A stretch of 11,866 bases of DNA from a virus (IMGVR_UViG_2663762893_000001); one strand, 5' to 3'; shown: positions 6,147 through 11,413, numbered from the stretch's first letter. Made by a program: numbers and translations. Notes: a model not told the origin generated them from the sequence alone.

Positions 6147-7789
6147 CGGTTTATTCCTTTATTTTTTCCTTTCTCTGGGTTTCCTTTCCCCGATATTCAT
6201 ATTCATTTGTACCAGCAATTGCAGCAGTGGCTGCGCGGGCTGTTATTCCTAAAGTCGTTGGCCGGGTGCTTGTTCGTCGCTTTGCTGCCAATGATGCGAT
6301 TTATACGGCATCACAGCTTACAGCAACCCGTGTTTTTGTTGGCCGCGCTGCGGCTAATGCTGCCGAATACTTGCCTGCTGCCTCATCATACAAAATGAGC
6401 GGTGTTGCAACGTGGGCGGGTATTGCTGCTGCTGTATCATCTTTTGTTCCGTCTTCTTTGAGTTCATCTGACGGCTCGGTAATGGTAATGACTAACGGTA
6501 AAAAGATTTCCGATAATTTATATGAAGTAACGTACAGTGGTCAAAGTGGTGAAAGTAAGACGATAACCGTTAATTTTGAACCACAGGAATTAAGTCCGGT
6601 AATCCTTCATGTTAGTCGTAATAATGTGGATGCGGGTTCTCCAGTTGTAGGTGTTGAAACAGGATATTCCACGCCAGATAATGCACTTTATTATTATCAG
6701 GATTCGAAAGAGCTAATTTATTACTATGGTGATAATCCAACTGAAATTGCCAGAAATTATCTTAATGACTATAACTCGCGTACTTATACTGAAACACTAA
6801 CGAATTTTGAACGCACTGTGACGAATAAAGTTGTCAACAGTAATGGAGATGTATCCTTTACTGAACAGAATTATAAGTTTACTTATCCTTCCTCATTTTA
6901 TGAAATACCTGAGATTACACACTTGTATAGCAACCCGGCCGCATCTTCATTTCCCGCAGGTATTCCCATGTATGAAAATGTAGCAGGGCTTCCCATGTAT
7001 TACAGCGTTGCTTATTTAACAGCAGGAAAGCAATATCAGTATCACAACACGCCTTGTAAAACGACTAATCAGTCAAATGGTGGATATTCGACGATTTGCG
7101 CCGTTCCTGAAAAAGAGGATTACACCGCAAAAGATATTGATGAAAAGAGTGAGCTTACTATCTGGACCAATACCAAATATAAAGCCATGACGGAAGTACT
7201 GGAGGCCGGAAATATTGAGTCCATGATTGATTATCTGGAGTATCTTGATAGTGTTAGTGTATCGCCAGCACTTCTTGCCGACATGATTAACGAGCTGTGG
7301 TCTGAAGCTGCCGTTAATGTCGATTATAACGGCTTACCGTTTAAAGAGGTTTCACCGGCTGAAGTAACTTCTGCGATGTCGGAACTTAGGCTATCTCCAA
7401 CGTTATTAGATATGCTTTCACCTGTATCTGACAGTGCAGGGGCTGACGTCAATATTGATATTACCATTAATAACAACTCAGGATCTGACACTGGAAATAA
7501 TGGCAATATAGATTTGGGAGAAGATCCCGGTGTAAAAGAGCCTGAGCTTGAAGAAACGCCAACGGCAAGAGATATTTTAACGCCAATTATTAACTTGTTG
7601 CCTTTTACAAACGAATTTAACATCGGCTCTCGTTCAGCATCCTGCCCCGTTGTTGAATTCAGCGTGTTTAATCACCAGTACAGAATTGACTCCCATTGTC
7701 CGTTAATTGAGCAGAACAGAAGCGCCGTAGAAACCATATTTCTGATTATATGGGGATTTGTTGCGCTCCGTATTATTCTGAGTGCCTAA
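6077..7789 (+). CDS. Minor coat / adsorption protein (pIII-like), up to 570 aa
   Basis: Largest structural ORF after the major coat gene; GGAG 8 nt upstream of ATG 6077. Hydrophobic N-proximal segment LTVYSFIFSFLWVSF, Ser/Gly/Asn-rich linker (SGSDTGNNGNIDLG) and C-terminal membrane anchor IFLIIWGFVALRIILSA. True start is uncertain; the in-frame ATG at 6395 is an alternative. Confidence 0.75.
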   Translation: MEIGFPFMGDRLSLCRYSWAKRLTVYSFIFSFLWVSFPRYSYSFVPAIAAVAARAVIPKVVGRVLVRRFAANDAIYTASQLTATRVFVGRAAANAAEYLPAASSYKMSGVATWAGIAAAVSSFVPSSLSSSDGSVMVMTNGKKISDNLYEVTYSGQSGESKTITVNFEPQELSPVILHVSRNNVDAGSPVVGVETGYSTPDNALYYYQDSKELIYYYGDNPTEIARNYLNDYNSRTYTETLTNFERTVTNKVVNSNGDVSFTEQNYKFTYPSSFYEIPEITHLYSNPAASSFPAGIPMYENVAGLPMYYSVAYLTAGKQYQYHNTPCKTTNQSNGGYSTICAVPEKEDYTAKDIDEKSELTIWTNTKYKAMTEVLEAGNIESMIDYLEYLDSVSVSPALLADMINELWSEAAVNVDYNGLPFKEVSPAEVTSAMSELRLSPTLLDMLSPVSDSAGADVNIDITINNNSGSDTGNNGNIDLGEDPGVKEPELEETPTARDILTPIINLLPFTNEFNIGSRSASCPVVEFSVFNHQYRIDSHCPLIEQNRSAVETIFLIIWGFVALRIILSA

Positions 7790-7801
7790 AGGAGTGCAAC
7801 T

Positions 7802-8089
7802 ATGTTTGGGATTCTGATTAGTGCATTAAATACTTTGTTAGGTTTTGTATTCCGGTCATTGATTATTAAATTCGTCGTATTCTTTGCGCTGTATTTTGTA
7901 GTCCAGGGCTTCGTTGAAATCCTTGTTGAGTTACTGCCAGATTCAAGCAATCTCTCATCGCTGTTTGCCAATTTATCAGACGGATTCTGGTACTTCATTA
8001 ACCTGAGTAAATTACCACAGGGGATTAGTATGATTATCTCCGCAATGGCTACTCGTTTTATTATTCGACGTATTCCTGTTATAGGGTGA
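7802..8089 (+). CDS. Minor coat protein (pVI-like), 95 aa, hydrophobic
   Basis: GGAG 7 nt upstream. Highly hydrophobic small protein directly after the pIII-like gene, as for gene VI in inoviruses. Confidence 0.65.
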   Translation: MFGILISALNTLLGFVFRSLIIKFVVFFALYFVVQGFVEILVELLPDSSNLSSLFANLSDGFWYFINLSKLPQGISMIISAMATRFIIRRIPVIG

Positions 8090-8092
8090 GTT

Positions 8093-9118
8093 ATGGCTAT
8101 TTCTGCATATATTGGCATACCCGGCTCAGGAAAAAGTTATGAAGCCGTTTACAATGTCATTATTCCGGCATTTACCAGCGGCCGGAGAGTTGTGACGAAC
8201 ATTTATGGTTTACAAAAAGATAAAATCACCGAACGTTATCCTGATGCAACGGGAGAAATTATTGTTGTGGATAATGATGATGTGCTTAAAGCAGATTTCT
8301 TTCCTTTTAAAGGTGGGGAAGGGAGCTTTTGCCAGTTTGGTGATTTAATTGTTATTGATGAAGCATGGCGAATCTTCGGTAGCGATAAGGATATGACGGC
8401 TGAGAAGAAATCATTTATTGCTGAACATCGTCATTTTACGCACCCTGAAACGGGTATTAGCTGTGATTTGGTTATTGTAAATCAGTCACTTTCTAATATT
8501 GCTCGCTTTCTGAAAGACAAAATAGAAACAACTTACCGGATGCGCAAGCTGAAAGCGTTGGGCCTGAATAATCATTATTGCATTGACGTATATTCAGGCC
8601 ACAAAATCTATAAAAGCAACCTCGTCACCAGTTATCGCAATAAATATAACCCTGATATTTTTGAACTTTACAAAAGTTATGAAGGAAATAACGGTAATGA
8701 AAAGCAGACAGATAAACGCCAGAGCATCTGGAATTCTGGCAAAGTCAGGTTCTTTCTTGTGCTTTTTCCATTGATGTTTATCGGGTCAGGCTGGCTGATT
8801 TACTCATTTTTCAGCACGTTTGGCCGAAGCGATCCCTCGCCAGATTTGACTACAACAGATGTACGTGATGCGGCCATGTTTCGTTCTTCCGCTGCTACTC
8901 CAGCACCAGATACTCCCTCAGAACCAGCTGAACCGCCACTTTCAACCGAGTGGCGTATATCAGGGAGAATGACCAGTGAAGGCAGGGCGTTTGTGATTCT
9001 TGTTAACGGTGCCGGTGTTTTGCGTGCCGTTCCTGCATCCAGTTTTAATTACAAAGGGATGTTGATGAGCGGAATTATTGATGGTGAGCGTGTGACGCTT
9101 TATACGGGGAAAAAATAA
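8093..9118 (+). CDS. Zot-like assembly ATPase (pI-like morphogenesis protein)
   Basis: 341 aa. N-terminal Walker A GIPGSGKSY and Walker B-like LIVIDEAW. The segment GIPGSGKS...PAFTSGRRVVTNIYGL parallels V. cholerae Zot as I recall it. Central TM segment FFLVLFPLMFIGSGWLIYSFF and Pro-rich C-terminal domain. Confidence 0.88.
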   Translation: MAISAYIGIPGSGKSYEAVYNVIIPAFTSGRRVVTNIYGLQKDKITERYPDATGEIIVVDNDDVLKADFFPFKGGEGSFCQFGDLIVIDEAWRIFGSDKDMTAEKKSFIAEHRHFTHPETGISCDLVIVNQSLSNIARFLKDKIETTYRMRKLKALGLNNHYCIDVYSGHKIYKSNLVTSYRNKYNPDIFELYKSYEGNNGNEKQTDKRQSIWNSGKVRFFLVLFPLMFIGSGWLIYSFFSTFGRSDPSPDLTTTDVRDAAMFRSSAATPAPDTPSEPAEPPLSTEWRISGRMTSEGRAFVILVNGAGVLRAVPASSFNYKGMLMSGIIDGERVTLYTGKK

Positions 9119-10362
9119 TGAAAAAGATTTTACTCGCATTAACGCTACTATTTTCTTCATGTGCTTTCGCAGGGTCAGAGCTTGAATTAAATAAAGTCAA
9201 GCTACCGGAGGCTATTTCTCTTATTTACAGTGAGGTGCTTAAAGTCCCGTATATGCTAGATCCACAGCTTGTTAATGATGAACGAATGATTACATTCAGG
9301 TTAACACCTGATATTGATGAACGGGAATTTGTAACCCGTTATCTTGGCAATATGAACATTCGAATATGGACGAAAAAGGGTGTTGATTTTATCGCGCCCT
9401 ATACGCCGAAAGAGCCGGTTAAGCCACGTTATACATGGACTTATACGCCTCAGTACCGTTCTGTTGCTTACCTGTCTGATATTCTTGGCGGCTACGTTTC
9501 AGGCTCCTTCAATAACAGTGGAGCCGTGATTTCTGACGATTCGCTAAAAGGTTCATCAGGGGCAAGCAACTACATCAATCGAACCGGTGATATTCTGGTT
9601 TATTATGGTACGAAAGAGGATATCGCCATCCTGAAAACACTGGTCACTTCGCTGGATACGATGAGTGATGAAGTGGTTGTTTCTGGTTATGTTTTTGAGG
9701 TTCAGACCTCGCAGTCTGACGGCTCCGGCATTCTTTTAGCGGCTAAAATTCTGTCTGATAAATTCAATATTTCAGTTGGTGCTGCCGGACTGGATAATTT
9801 TATCAATATTCGAACCGGCTCCATTGATGCCATTTTCAATCTGCTGAAAACCGACAGTCGTTTTACTGTTGTCAGTGCGCCACGACTGCGGGTAAAAAAT
9901 AATGCCTCAGCGTCTTTTTCAGTCGGCTCTGATGTGCCAGTACTGGGCAGTGTTACGGTGAATAACAATACGACAACGCAATCCGTTGAATATCGTTCCA
10001 GCGGTGTTTTGTTTAACGTGACGCCATCAATCAAAAGTCGGACAATGGATCTCAAGATTCAGCAGCAGCTTTCCAACTTTGTGACCACTGAAACCGGCGT
10101 CAATAACTCGCCAACCCTTATCAAGCGTGATGTAACAACCGAAGTCAGCCTTGCAGATGGTGATATTATTTTACTTGGTGGCCTTGCTGAACAGAAAGAC
10201 AGTAAGGCCAGTTCCGGCTGGAGCTTCTTCGGTTCCCGTACCAGTGAAAGCAACAAGACTGATATTATGGTGATGCTTCAGGTCAGAAAGGTTGACCGGA
10301 GCAGGGCGACGCCCCGCAGCGCCGCGAGGAGCGGTGAACTGTTCCGGGACAACCTGAACTGA
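9118..10362 (+). CDS. Secretin (pIV-like outer-membrane export channel)
   Basis: 414 aa. ATG overlaps the pI stop (TAATG at 9116-9120). N-terminal signal peptide MKKILLALTLLFSSCAFAG. C-terminal secretin-type region VVSAPRLRVKNNASASFSVGSDVPVL ... LADGDIILLGGL. Confidence 0.88.
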   Translation: MKKILLALTLLFSSCAFAGSELELNKVKLPEAISLIYSEVLKVPYMLDPQLVNDERMITFRLTPDIDEREFVTRYLGNMNIRIWTKKGVDFIAPYTPKEPVKPRYTWTYTPQYRSVAYLSDILGGYVSGSFNNSGAVISDDSLKGSSGASNYINRTGDILVYYGTKEDIAILKTLVTSLDTMSDEVVVSGYVFEVQTSQSDGSGILLAAKILSDKFNISVGAAGLDNFINIRTGSIDAIFNLLKTDSRFTVVSAPRLRVKNNASASFSVGSDVPVLGSVTVNNNTTTQSVEYRSSGVLFNVTPSIKSRTMDLKIQQQLSNFVTTETGVNNSPTLIKRDVTTEVSLADGDIILLGGLAEQKDSKASSGWSFFGSRTSESNKTDIMVMLQVRKVDRSRATPRSAARSGELFRDNLN

Positions 10363-10450
10363 TTGTATGGATTTTTATTATGGCGTTAACTTTTATGGGG
10401 TATGAACAGTACGACATCTTCTAGGTATTCAGTTACTTAGAGGATTTATT

Positions 10451-10699
10451 ATGTCTGTAAAAAATAAGGCGCGTGACCGACTTCCCGGTGGACGCCTTAA
10501 GTCTTATCGTCGTGTAGGTTCACATTTTGCCAGTTGTGCCAGATGGTTTGATAAATCGCCGTCCTGGTATCGCAATATGATGATGACCAGGCCTGAGCGT
10601 CGTGAAGTCAGAAGGCTTCTCAATCAGGTAATGCGTGGTCATGATGCTGACGGCATTGCTTTTCCGGTCAGTCATCGTCCGTTTGTTTATTGGTGGTGA
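10451..10699 (+). CDS. Hypothetical arginine-rich small protein (82 aa)
   Basis: Strong GAGGA RBS 6 nt upstream of the ATG. Basic, Arg/Trp-rich composition. No homolog recognised. Confidence 0.5.
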   Translation: MSVKNKARDRLPGGRLKSYRRVGSHFASCARWFDKSPSWYRNMMMTRPERREVRRLLNQVMRGHDADGIAFPVSHRPFVYWW

Positions 10700-10844
10700 A
10701 TTTCGTACGCACGAAATTTCACGCATAAACACCAGACAAAAAATCGTTAACTGTCTGTTTTGAAAGATAACGCCGGTCAGTGACAAAACTTGTTTTGTTG
10801 CTGTCCGGGGTTGGCCAAGCCGTACAGTTTCCATTTTCAGCGTT

Positions 10845-11093
10845 ATGGCTGATTCGGCGCGGCAGCATTCATCGGGGCTTATCATGGAAAAATTCATGAC
10901 ACATCAGGAGCTGAAAGTGATGCTTCTCAAAGATCCAGCATTCCGGGCTGCTTATGAAGCTGAGAGCCAGAACCCGCAATCCGGTTACCAGATTATCCGG
11001 CATCATGGTGATGGCACTGAAGAAGTGGTGTTTGATTCTCGTGTATCAGGTACAGATTTACCAACTAACTGGATGAACAGGCCTGATTGGTGA
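10845..11093 (+). CDS. Hypothetical small protein (82 aa from first ATG; alternative ATG at 10884 gives 69 aa)
   Basis: ORF in phage-side DNA just upstream of dif. Weak RBS at either start. No homolog recognised. Confidence 0.35.
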   Translation: MADSARQHSSGLIMEKFMTHQELKVMLLKDPAFRAAYEAESQNPQSGYQIIRHHGDGTEEVVFDSRVSGTDLPTNWMNRPDW

Positions 11094-11233
11094 GGTCAGG
11101 CCGTTCACTTACTGCTGACAGACATTTGATTCTGATTCGTTTGGAGAAACGGATGATTTTGAATCACTGTCGATAGTAGCCAGTTGACGGCCAGTGTCAA
11201 CGATTCCCGCCAGATTCTGCCATCCTTACCATT

Positions 11234-11261
11234 GGTGCGCATAATGTATATTATGTTAAAT
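11234..11261 (+). other. dif: dif / attR: canonical 28-bp chromosome dimer resolution site (XerC/XerD)
   Basis: Exact match to GGTGCGCATAATGTATATTATGTTAAAT, the E. coli dif sequence. Confidence 0.93.
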
Positions 11262-11413
11262 TGCCTGTGAAGGTCCTTTACTTCACCATTCACATCCACA
11301 CACAGATAAATCAATACGTTGTGATTTCTGACTTCCCTCCCGTTTCGGTAGAAAAATTCAACCTCTGTTCAGTGATGGCACACCATAGACCATGAGTTGG
11401 ATAATTGCGTTGT

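Follow-up and report, generated by a model that had tools for sequence, protein, structure and literature searches.

We examined positions 10700–11233 of an 11,866-nt stretch of viral DNA (IMGVR_UViG_2663762893_000001; the whole stretch is called the window below) and found that they form the right-hand end of a CTX-type inovirus that integrates at dif, and not a single intergenic region. Four parts follow one another: a variable spacer, a structured cis element of ~100 nt, a gene for a 69-amino-acid protein, and a spacer of ~140 bp that ends in the attachment site, attP. The structured element, which we term patch B (10766–10869), is a conserved noncoding block of two adjoining stem-loops, and we put at about even the chance that it is a host-primed origin of minus-strand (complementary-strand) synthesis lying just 5′ of attP. 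An earlier note on this DNA, made from the sequence alone, had described the stretch as sparsely coding and rich in hairpins and had offered it as a candidate location for the phage origins and packaging signal; the features it listed are real, but it misjudged the open reading frame (ORF) in their midst and laid the emphasis on the wrong hairpins.

The window is the Escherichia coli dif locus, in which a filamentous prophage (inovirus) of the CUS-1/YpfPhi type is placed between hipBA and an exact copy of E. coli dif. YpfPhi of Yersinia pestis is 99.7% identical to window positions 3411–11248, and the prophage is found in UTI89, NU14 and ~96 further complete E. coli genomes; a megablast search of INPHARED gave no match to a phage. 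The limits of the phage genome (1679–11244) are taken from a 9565-bp circular E. coli record (L015) in which 11244 is joined to 1679, and which is the episomal form of the phage. CUS-1 and YpfPhi have been placed in the CTX-type class, with integration at dif as folded single-stranded DNA (ssDNA).

Patch B is more conserved than the genes around it. Its identity is 85–100% in CUS-1, YpfPhi and UPPhi and in Phytobacter, Brenneria and gut-metagenome phages, and this level is kept between phages with gene identities of no more than 63–76%; in two comparisons the figures are 87% against 70–75% for the flanking genes (L012) and 89% against 63–65% (L067). The block also occurs in Klebsiella-type phages. 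When the whole stretch was used in a distant BLAST search, ~60 complete E. coli genomes matched solely at 10766–10869, with 86–89% identity. These carry UPPhi-type prophages, which have assembly genes like those of I2-2 and IKe and share with YpfPhi genes II and V alone. Patch B accompanies three types of replication protein (Rep), namely the G2P protein of CUS-1, a second G2P type (that of L063) with no meaningful BLASTP similarity to the first, and a Rep_trans protein (L067), and thus it is not a Rep-specific plus-strand origin. It likewise accompanies at least four morphogenesis lineages, whose modules are unrelated or only 25–56% identical in protein. Its passage from phage to phage is independent of the genes for replication and assembly. 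A distant search of INPHARED with patch B gave no match, and a permissive Rfam search found no family in 10300–11400. A pattern scan of metagenomes returned 107 hits, most of them chance matches in GC-rich DNA, and yielded the known variants plus one new gut lineage. The dif-integrating enterobacterial inoviruses compared (L063, L067, L123, L138, L039) are extensively mosaic as a set, in that they freely combine three types of Rep, several of gene V and four or more assembly modules, with attP and patch B nearly constant throughout.

The first stem-loop of patch B, SL1, is a 20-bp hairpin and, attP aside, the longest inverted repeat with a short loop in the 9.6-kb prophage; the earlier note did not list it, although it is the strongest hairpin of the stretch. 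Among 21 variants, 93% of the cells of the SL1 alignment pair and six pairs are changed on both sides, a result reached by none of 500 shuffles. Counted over 31 variants, the cells comprise 504 Watson–Crick pairs, 60 G.T and 3 A.C; the excess of G.T over A.C indicates that the + strand is the one that folds. The folding energy is −22.2 kcal/mol on the + strand and −18.4 kcal/mol on the − strand. The folded form is thus either the packaged + strand or an RNA of + sense. The second stem-loop, SL2, was predicted from the alignment by RNAalifold. Three lineages keep its stem with different pairs (GCCAAGCCG/CGGCGCGGC, ACCTGGCCG/CGGCCAGGT and ACCAGGCCAC/GTGGCCTGGT), and its loop measures 31–34 nt in all 31 variants. 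By manual reading, 15 of the 23 distinct loops have a weak −10-like sequence, (T/A)ACA(G/A)T, at the 5′ edge. Two further resemblances were set aside: that of the SL1 apex (AAAACTTGTTTTG) to a segment of the M13 minus origin (AAAAACTTGATTTG) is too short to count, and in a reading of AAC...GTTGGCC as an integron attC-like site the AAC/GTT triplet alone pairs and no integrase is present.

The other fixed element of this end is attP. In the circular phage the XerC arm, an 11-nt central region, the XerD-like arm, an 11-bp hairpin and a second, inverted dif-like site come together in one forked hairpin, with a folding energy of −33.1 kcal/mol (z = −5.4). The phage thus has the attachment site of the CTX-type integrative mobile elements exploiting Xer (IMEX): two inverted dif-like sites that form a forked hairpin of the + strand, integration at dif, and an intact dif at attR. 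The ATT at 11231–11233, the last three bases of the stretch, are part of the stem of this hairpin, and the stretch runs into attP at its end, where the earlier note had put the phage-derived XerC arm. Positions 11208–11244 are 98–100% conserved in UPPhi, although UPPhi is otherwise unrelated at this end.

In every complete block-bearing phage examined, patch B lies 240–500 nt 5′ of this conserved attP (95% identity), and it is common to phages that otherwise share attP alone. One might therefore take it for an accessory site of Xer integration, at which a bound host factor would assist the folding or use of the attP(+) hairpin, and which would travel with attP and not with replication. We consider this quite improbable. 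A review of CTX-type integration describes no accessory site, and SL1 copies occur on plasmids with no attP nearby (L014, between traD and traG, and L018). The phage I2-2 does not discriminate here: it is non-integrating and lacks patch B, but has an Ff-type minus origin of its own. The SL1 copies on large enterobacterial plasmids carry compensatory changes (L014:4001–4050; L018:3004–3052; L016 and L017:3001–3046); that of L014 is on an IncF plasmid, on the inferred transferred strand. Some of these copies look like phage remnants. We did not rely on them as independent single-strand initiation (ssi) signals, given that some adjoin an attP fragment (for example L016) and the IncF copy is a single locus.

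For the plus-strand origin, comparison of the phages revealed a further conserved noncoding patch at 3436–3479, just 3′ of the repressor gene and ~7 kb from the stretch. It begins with a nick hairpin, ACGTGCAG-TGTTGGT^AATA-CTGCACGT (loop TGTTGGTAATA), followed by TT and then by GTCTCA-TTCC-TGAGAC. The M13 origin reads GAGTCCAC-GTTCTTTAATA-GTGGACTC, then TT, then GTTCCA-AAC-TGGAAC; the two have in common an 8-bp stem, an 11-nt loop ending in TAATA, a TT spacer and a second short hairpin. The gpII nick of M13 falls between the T and AATA. A compensatory variant of the second hairpin (GTACCA/TGGTAC) was found, and positions 2666–2706 in the intergenic region of I2-2, a phage with a gene II protein 58% identical to that of the window, are 90% identical to the 3436–3479 core. 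Three independent natural duplication or deletion junctions (in L005, L008 and L028; one is from an IMG/VR contig, the others are from E. coli ETEC-2264 and Klebsiella spallanzanii) fall between T3449 and A3450, where foreign sequence is joined to AATACTG after GT; this is the signature expected of aberrant rolling-circle termination. As in Ff-type systems, the cognate enzyme is of the G2P family, and it is encoded at 4109–5161. In a motif search of the window the Ff nick motif was found only at 3446, with none in 10700–11233. In ig-1 of CTXPhi the RstA nick site has the corresponding position. We conclude that 3436–3479 is probably the plus-strand origin of CUS-1, YpfPhi and UPPhi, with a predicted Rep nick between T3449 and A3450. 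The region that the earlier note had named as an alternative origin, 3938–4108, was rejected, since phages with gene II in common do not conserve it; its behaviour is that of a promoter and immunity region. In two of the rearranged genomes (L005:1–1750 and L028:900–1775) RS1-like partial tandem copies precede the full prophage, each bounded by a nick-site junction. These copies consist of the repressor and gene II with a truncated gene V, or of no more than the beginning of gene II, and recall RS1 beside CTXPhi.

A structure of the + strand that is independent of all phage proteins points to a function read by the host, and the classical case of such a function in inoviruses is the minus-strand origin. 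As at the Ff minus origin, two adjacent hairpins of the + strand lie between gene IV and the plus origin, and the order of gene IV, patch B, plus origin and gene II is the Ff order of packaging signal, minus origin and plus origin. The Ff-type core TCAAGCTNTAAATCG is present exactly in M13 and in I2-2, where it lies between the packaging signal and the plus origin. The window and UPPhi lack it and gave only chance hits with three mismatches, three of the four inside coding regions; the minus-origin slot of these phages is therefore vacant.

Priming by the host, the enzyme and the link to integration are what we infer from this as the best reading. A host enzyme would recognise patch B on the SSB-coated viral ssDNA and lay a primer there, by which the incoming single strand would be converted to the replicative form (RF). 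The likeliest enzyme would be RNA polymerase holoenzyme, as at the Ff minus origin, with primase or PriA less likely. Synthesis of the complementary strand would proceed from patch B towards lower + coordinates, and, given the place of patch B 5′ of attP, the attP hairpin would be the last part to become double-stranded. Such an order may suit a phage that integrates as ssDNA. A more far-reaching version, which we regard as possible but rather doubtful, is that patch B represents a portable new class of inovirus minus-strand origin, in which the coaxial SL1/SL2 duplex, the loop of fixed size and ACA(G/A)T would mimic a fork junction or open complex, and whose position 5′ of attP would have been selected so that attP is copied last and RF formation is tied to XerCD integration. 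The proposal that the −10-like hexamer and the fixed loop size serve as a fork-junction mimic for RNA polymerase is speculative.

Several points weigh against patch B as a minus-strand origin. It has no sequence similarity to the minus origin of Ff or I2-2, and the Ff hairpin-B core flanked by C/G runs is not found in the window. On manual inspection neither helix has a −35/−10 pair at 16–18-bp spacing, of the kind by which an Frpo-type signal is recognised. Folding of the + strand is equally compatible with an RNA of + sense, and in most lineages a + strand ORF begins 15–25 nt 3′ of the block, so that a role in its expression is possible. A packaging role is possible in CUS-1-type phages, since in these no packaging signal apart from it was found. 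Two prophage variants (L028 and L038) lack patch B; both also lack gene IV and may be defective. Finally, priming from patch B is proposed from sequence comparison.

That SL1 is the packaging (morphogenetic) signal of CUS-1-type phages, protruding from the gpV–ssDNA complex to start assembly as hairpin A of Ff does, is to our mind unlikely. SL1 does have the length for it, its stem resembling the 22–24-bp stems quoted for the IKe and Ff packaging signals; its place is 3′ of gene IV, it folds on the + strand, and no other candidate was found in CUS-1, where the post-gene-IV hairpin is weak (−5.5 kcal/mol). UPPhi, however, has in addition to patch B a clear I2-2-type packaging hairpin directly after gene IV (L004:8614–8673; −24.5 kcal/mol), which shows compensatory changes, contains CGGGT...GGTG and is homologous to the annotated morphogenetic signal of I2-2. 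Patch B lies 330 nt beyond it and is thus not the packaging signal in UPPhi. Packaging signals are described as carrying CGGGT, then GGTG, on the ascending limb; patch B is not a long, near-perfect hairpin right after gene IV with these motifs, as in Ff, IKe and I2-2. Moreover, an identity of ~89% across morphogenesis modules as divergent as those described above is unexpected for a site read by phage assembly proteins, and the known packaging signals have no counterpart of a second stem-loop with a fixed loop.

Similarly, patch B might act in a transcript, as a structure of the 5′ untranslated region, a processing or stability site, or a weak promoter of the downstream cargo gene. A + strand ORF with a Shine–Dalgarno sequence stands 15–60 nt after the block in CUS-1, UPPhi, Phytobacter, Brenneria and Klebsiella-type elements; in the present phage it is the 69-aa ORF, at the position of ctxAB in CTXPhi. 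RNA, furthermore, tolerates G.U pairs, which matches the strand asymmetry of SL1. The ORFs downstream of patch B are, however, mutually unrelated, and the ETEC-2264 variant retains the block although the gene after it runs on the other strand. We found no sigma-70-like promoter on the + strand and no U-tract terminator after either helix, and the region of patch B matched no Rfam family. Conservation above that of coding genes and a loop fixed at 31–34 nt would also be unusual for a leader, and we consider a role in the transcript improbable.

The minus-strand origin reading thus likens patch B to the Ff minus origin, in which hairpins B and C are primed by RNA polymerase holoenzyme. Both are ~100–150 nt of + strand ssDNA with two adjacent hairpins, located after gene IV and before the plus origin, and the Ff minus origin is read by a host enzyme and not by a phage enzyme, which fits the independence of patch B from the Rep and morphogenesis modules. 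They differ in sequence, patch B lacking the Ff core, and in form, since patch B sets a 20-bp hairpin beside a short stem with a large fixed loop. In addition, attP, the accessory genes and the repressor gene part patch B from the plus origin. The Frpo and ssi signals of conjugative plasmids are likewise folded ssDNA read by host RNA polymerase or a primosome, on entering strands, and SL1 copies are present on enterobacterial plasmids. Frpo, however, rebuilds canonical −35/−10 boxes in one long stem, which patch B does not, and the plasmid copies of SL1 lie outside leading regions, some of them looking like inovirus remnants (an attP piece lies near L016).

With CTXPhi and the other CTX-type IMEX (RS1, YpfPhi, CUS-1Phi) the phage of the window shares integration at dif through a forked ssDNA attP of two inverted dif-like sites, restoration of an intact dif at attR, tandem arrays with partial RS-like copies, a plus origin just 3′ of the repressor gene (ig-1 in CTXPhi) and accessory genes next to attR, where ctxAB sits. 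In contrast to CTXPhi, which has RstA and a 167-bp origin, it has an Ff-type G2P Rep with an Ff-type nick hairpin, and it encodes its own secretin; the CTXPhi papers compared mention no element like patch B. I2-2 (Lineavirus) is related to it through gene II, gene V (42% identical) and the plus-origin core, and differs in being non-integrating, in its Ff-like minus origin and in lacking patch B and attP.

YpfPhi of the plague bacillus, CUS-1 of extraintestinal pathogenic E. coli and the UPPhi phages have been investigated as elements of fitness and virulence. Their cis-acting DNA is unmapped in the papers covered, and a 2014 review mentions a promoter region only. The analysis provides testable coordinates for three elements, namely the Rep nick site (3449/3450), the attP hairpin and the two-hairpin patch B. 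Patch B would be a new variant, in sequence and structure, of a known type of function. If it is indeed a module read by the host, it would be useful for phagemids or satellite vectors of these phages and could serve as a marker for recognising dif-integrating inoviruses in genomes. A functional position next to attP would, moreover, explain the timing of double-strand conversion in a phage that integrates as ssDNA.

The small inverted repeats to which the earlier note had drawn attention are exactly as it gave them: CGTTT-GGAG-AAACG at 11138–11151 and GTTGAC-N7-GTCAAC at 11183–11201. The GATTC/GAATC repeats are significantly over-represented (7 copies against 1.65 ± 1.2 in dinucleotide shuffles, with none of 1,000 shuffles reaching 7), and the stretch is rich in hairpins, with 11 perfect hairpins of stem ≥5 bp against 3.65 ± 2.3 (7 of 300 shuffles reach 11). 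The ssDNA folding that the note had suggested gave z = −3.2 for 10700–10895 and z = −2.0 for 11094–11233 relative to shuffles, so the second region, too, folds somewhat better than expected. Nevertheless, it is very unlikely that the plus origin, the minus origin and the packaging signal all reside in these small hairpins and repeats. The plus origin maps to 3436–3479; substitutions in relatives break both hairpins without compensation; and 11094–11207 is missing in those Brenneria, Phytobacter and UPPhi relatives in which patch B and attP are retained. What stands of the proposed cis-element location is that the stretch does contain a constrained element folding on the + strand. Comparison with characterised inoviruses, also suggested in the note, found neither the Ff nick motif nor the minus core in the stretch, whereas the two-hairpin form of patch B is Ff-like.

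The ORF at 10845–11093, which the note had called weakly supported, exists, and it encodes a conserved protein, which the note itself had given as one half of what would tell against its proposal. The predicted start is 10884 and not 10845. The ATG at 10845 lies inside the conserved noncoding block and is ATT in relatives, and PHROG 6642 matches over profile positions 1–69 (E = 1.1e-53), its position 1 falling on residue 14 of the long ORF, the ATG at 10884. A large protein collection holds 33 clusters of homologues, 55–100% identical, from Enterobacterales (Escherichia, Yersinia, Raoultella, Brenneria and Pectobacterium), which share the start M-x-K-F-x-T-H and an invariant core. The full-length profile match and the conserved homologues place the protein in the PHROG 6642/YPO2281-like group; PGAP annotates it from 10896 (WP_001298440.1). 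It is apparently the homologue of YPO2281 of YpfPhi, as assigned by its position next to attR; YPO2281 has been described as one of two unexplained ORFs there. Searches of Pfam, NCBIfam, PDB sequences and folds gave no match for the 69-aa protein, and an AlphaFold model (pLDDT 70) with Foldseek was uninformative.

Table 1. Positions in the window of the phage features discussed, in order along the + strand.
Feature	Position	Strand	Basis or content
attL, remainder of attP	1668–1760	+	central region, XerD-like arm, 11-bp hairpin, second inverted dif-like site
Two accessory ORFs	1767–3394	−	
Plus-strand origin core (probable)	3436–3479	+	M13-like architecture, I2-2 match, rearrangement junctions
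Helix-turn-helix repressor	3491–3937	−	
Gene II (G2P family Rep)	4109–5161	+	PF05144 1.2e-73, PF05155 3.6e-34
Gene V	5173–5490	+	
Coat and assembly genes, the last a secretin	to 10362	+	
82-aa ORF	10451–10699	+	
Stretch under study	10700–11233		
Variable spacer following the 82-aa ORF stop codon	10700–10765	+	lineage comparison
Patch B, noncoding block of two adjoining stem-loops, proposed minus-strand origin	10766–10869	+	conservation, covariation
SL1, 20-bp hairpin, 4–5-nt loop with CTTG	10769–10812	+	covariation, folding energy
SL2, 7–10-bp stem abutting SL1, T-rich loop	10814–10863 (10814–10822 with 10855–10863)	+	RNAalifold, covariation
69-aa accessory gene	10884–11093	+	PHROG 6642, 33 homologue clusters
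Spacer with GATTC/GAATC repeats and two small inverted repeats	11094–11207	.	conserved among close relatives
Leftward sigma-70-like promoter, TTGACA-16-TACTAT	11173–11200	−	10/12 consensus positions
attP-proximal flank and XerC arm	11208–11244	+	11231–11244 is the outer stem of the forked attP hairpin in the circular phage
dif	11234–11261	+	exact match

The two spacers of the stretch are less widely conserved (Table 1). The first, which opens with an ATTTCGT-ACGC-ACGAAAT hairpin at 10700–10717, varies in length and sequence between lineages, and ~45 nt of it are missing in several. The second is conserved (93–100%) among close CUS-1-type phages only. A long imperfect hairpin at 11099–11192 was rejected, as substitutions in relatives are non-compensatory. 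Five of the seven GATTC/GAATC copies cluster within 90 bp (11128–11217), adjacent to the XerC side of attP; the analysis found neither a function nor a binding protein for them. The second spacer also contains the strong leftward promoter, antisense to the 69-aa gene. Every variant has its TTGACA box, and a single one, L037, departs from TACTAT (AACTAT). In ETEC-2264 it faces an unrelated 81-aa cargo ORF on the minus strand, which replaces the 69-aa gene. We kept it as an ordinary promoter of double-stranded DNA, because the ssDNA geometry fails for an Frpo-like reading.

At the other end of the prophage, beside attL, the 367-aa ORF at 1767–2870 (− strand) has a GC content of 0.29–0.36, against ~0.45 for the phage, and YpfPhi has different ORFs in its place; it is likely a cargo gene of recent acquisition. 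E. coli SCU-101 (L001:1–12900) carries a tandem pair of prophages, with a zot-like gene annotated at 378 aa and no secretin gene annotated; the deletion variant in this strain retains the 82-aa ORF, patch B, the 69-aa ORF and attP. The segment after gene IV, 10400–10450, hardly varies between lineages, including those with a different end of gene IV, and a 12-bp hairpin within it (10416–10445) covers the Shine–Dalgarno sequence of the 82-aa ORF. This hairpin is disfavoured as a packaging signal, being highly conserved yet invariant, weak (it is the −5.5 kcal/mol hairpin mentioned above) and overlapping the Shine–Dalgarno sequence, and it may rather take part in translational control of the 82-aa ORF.

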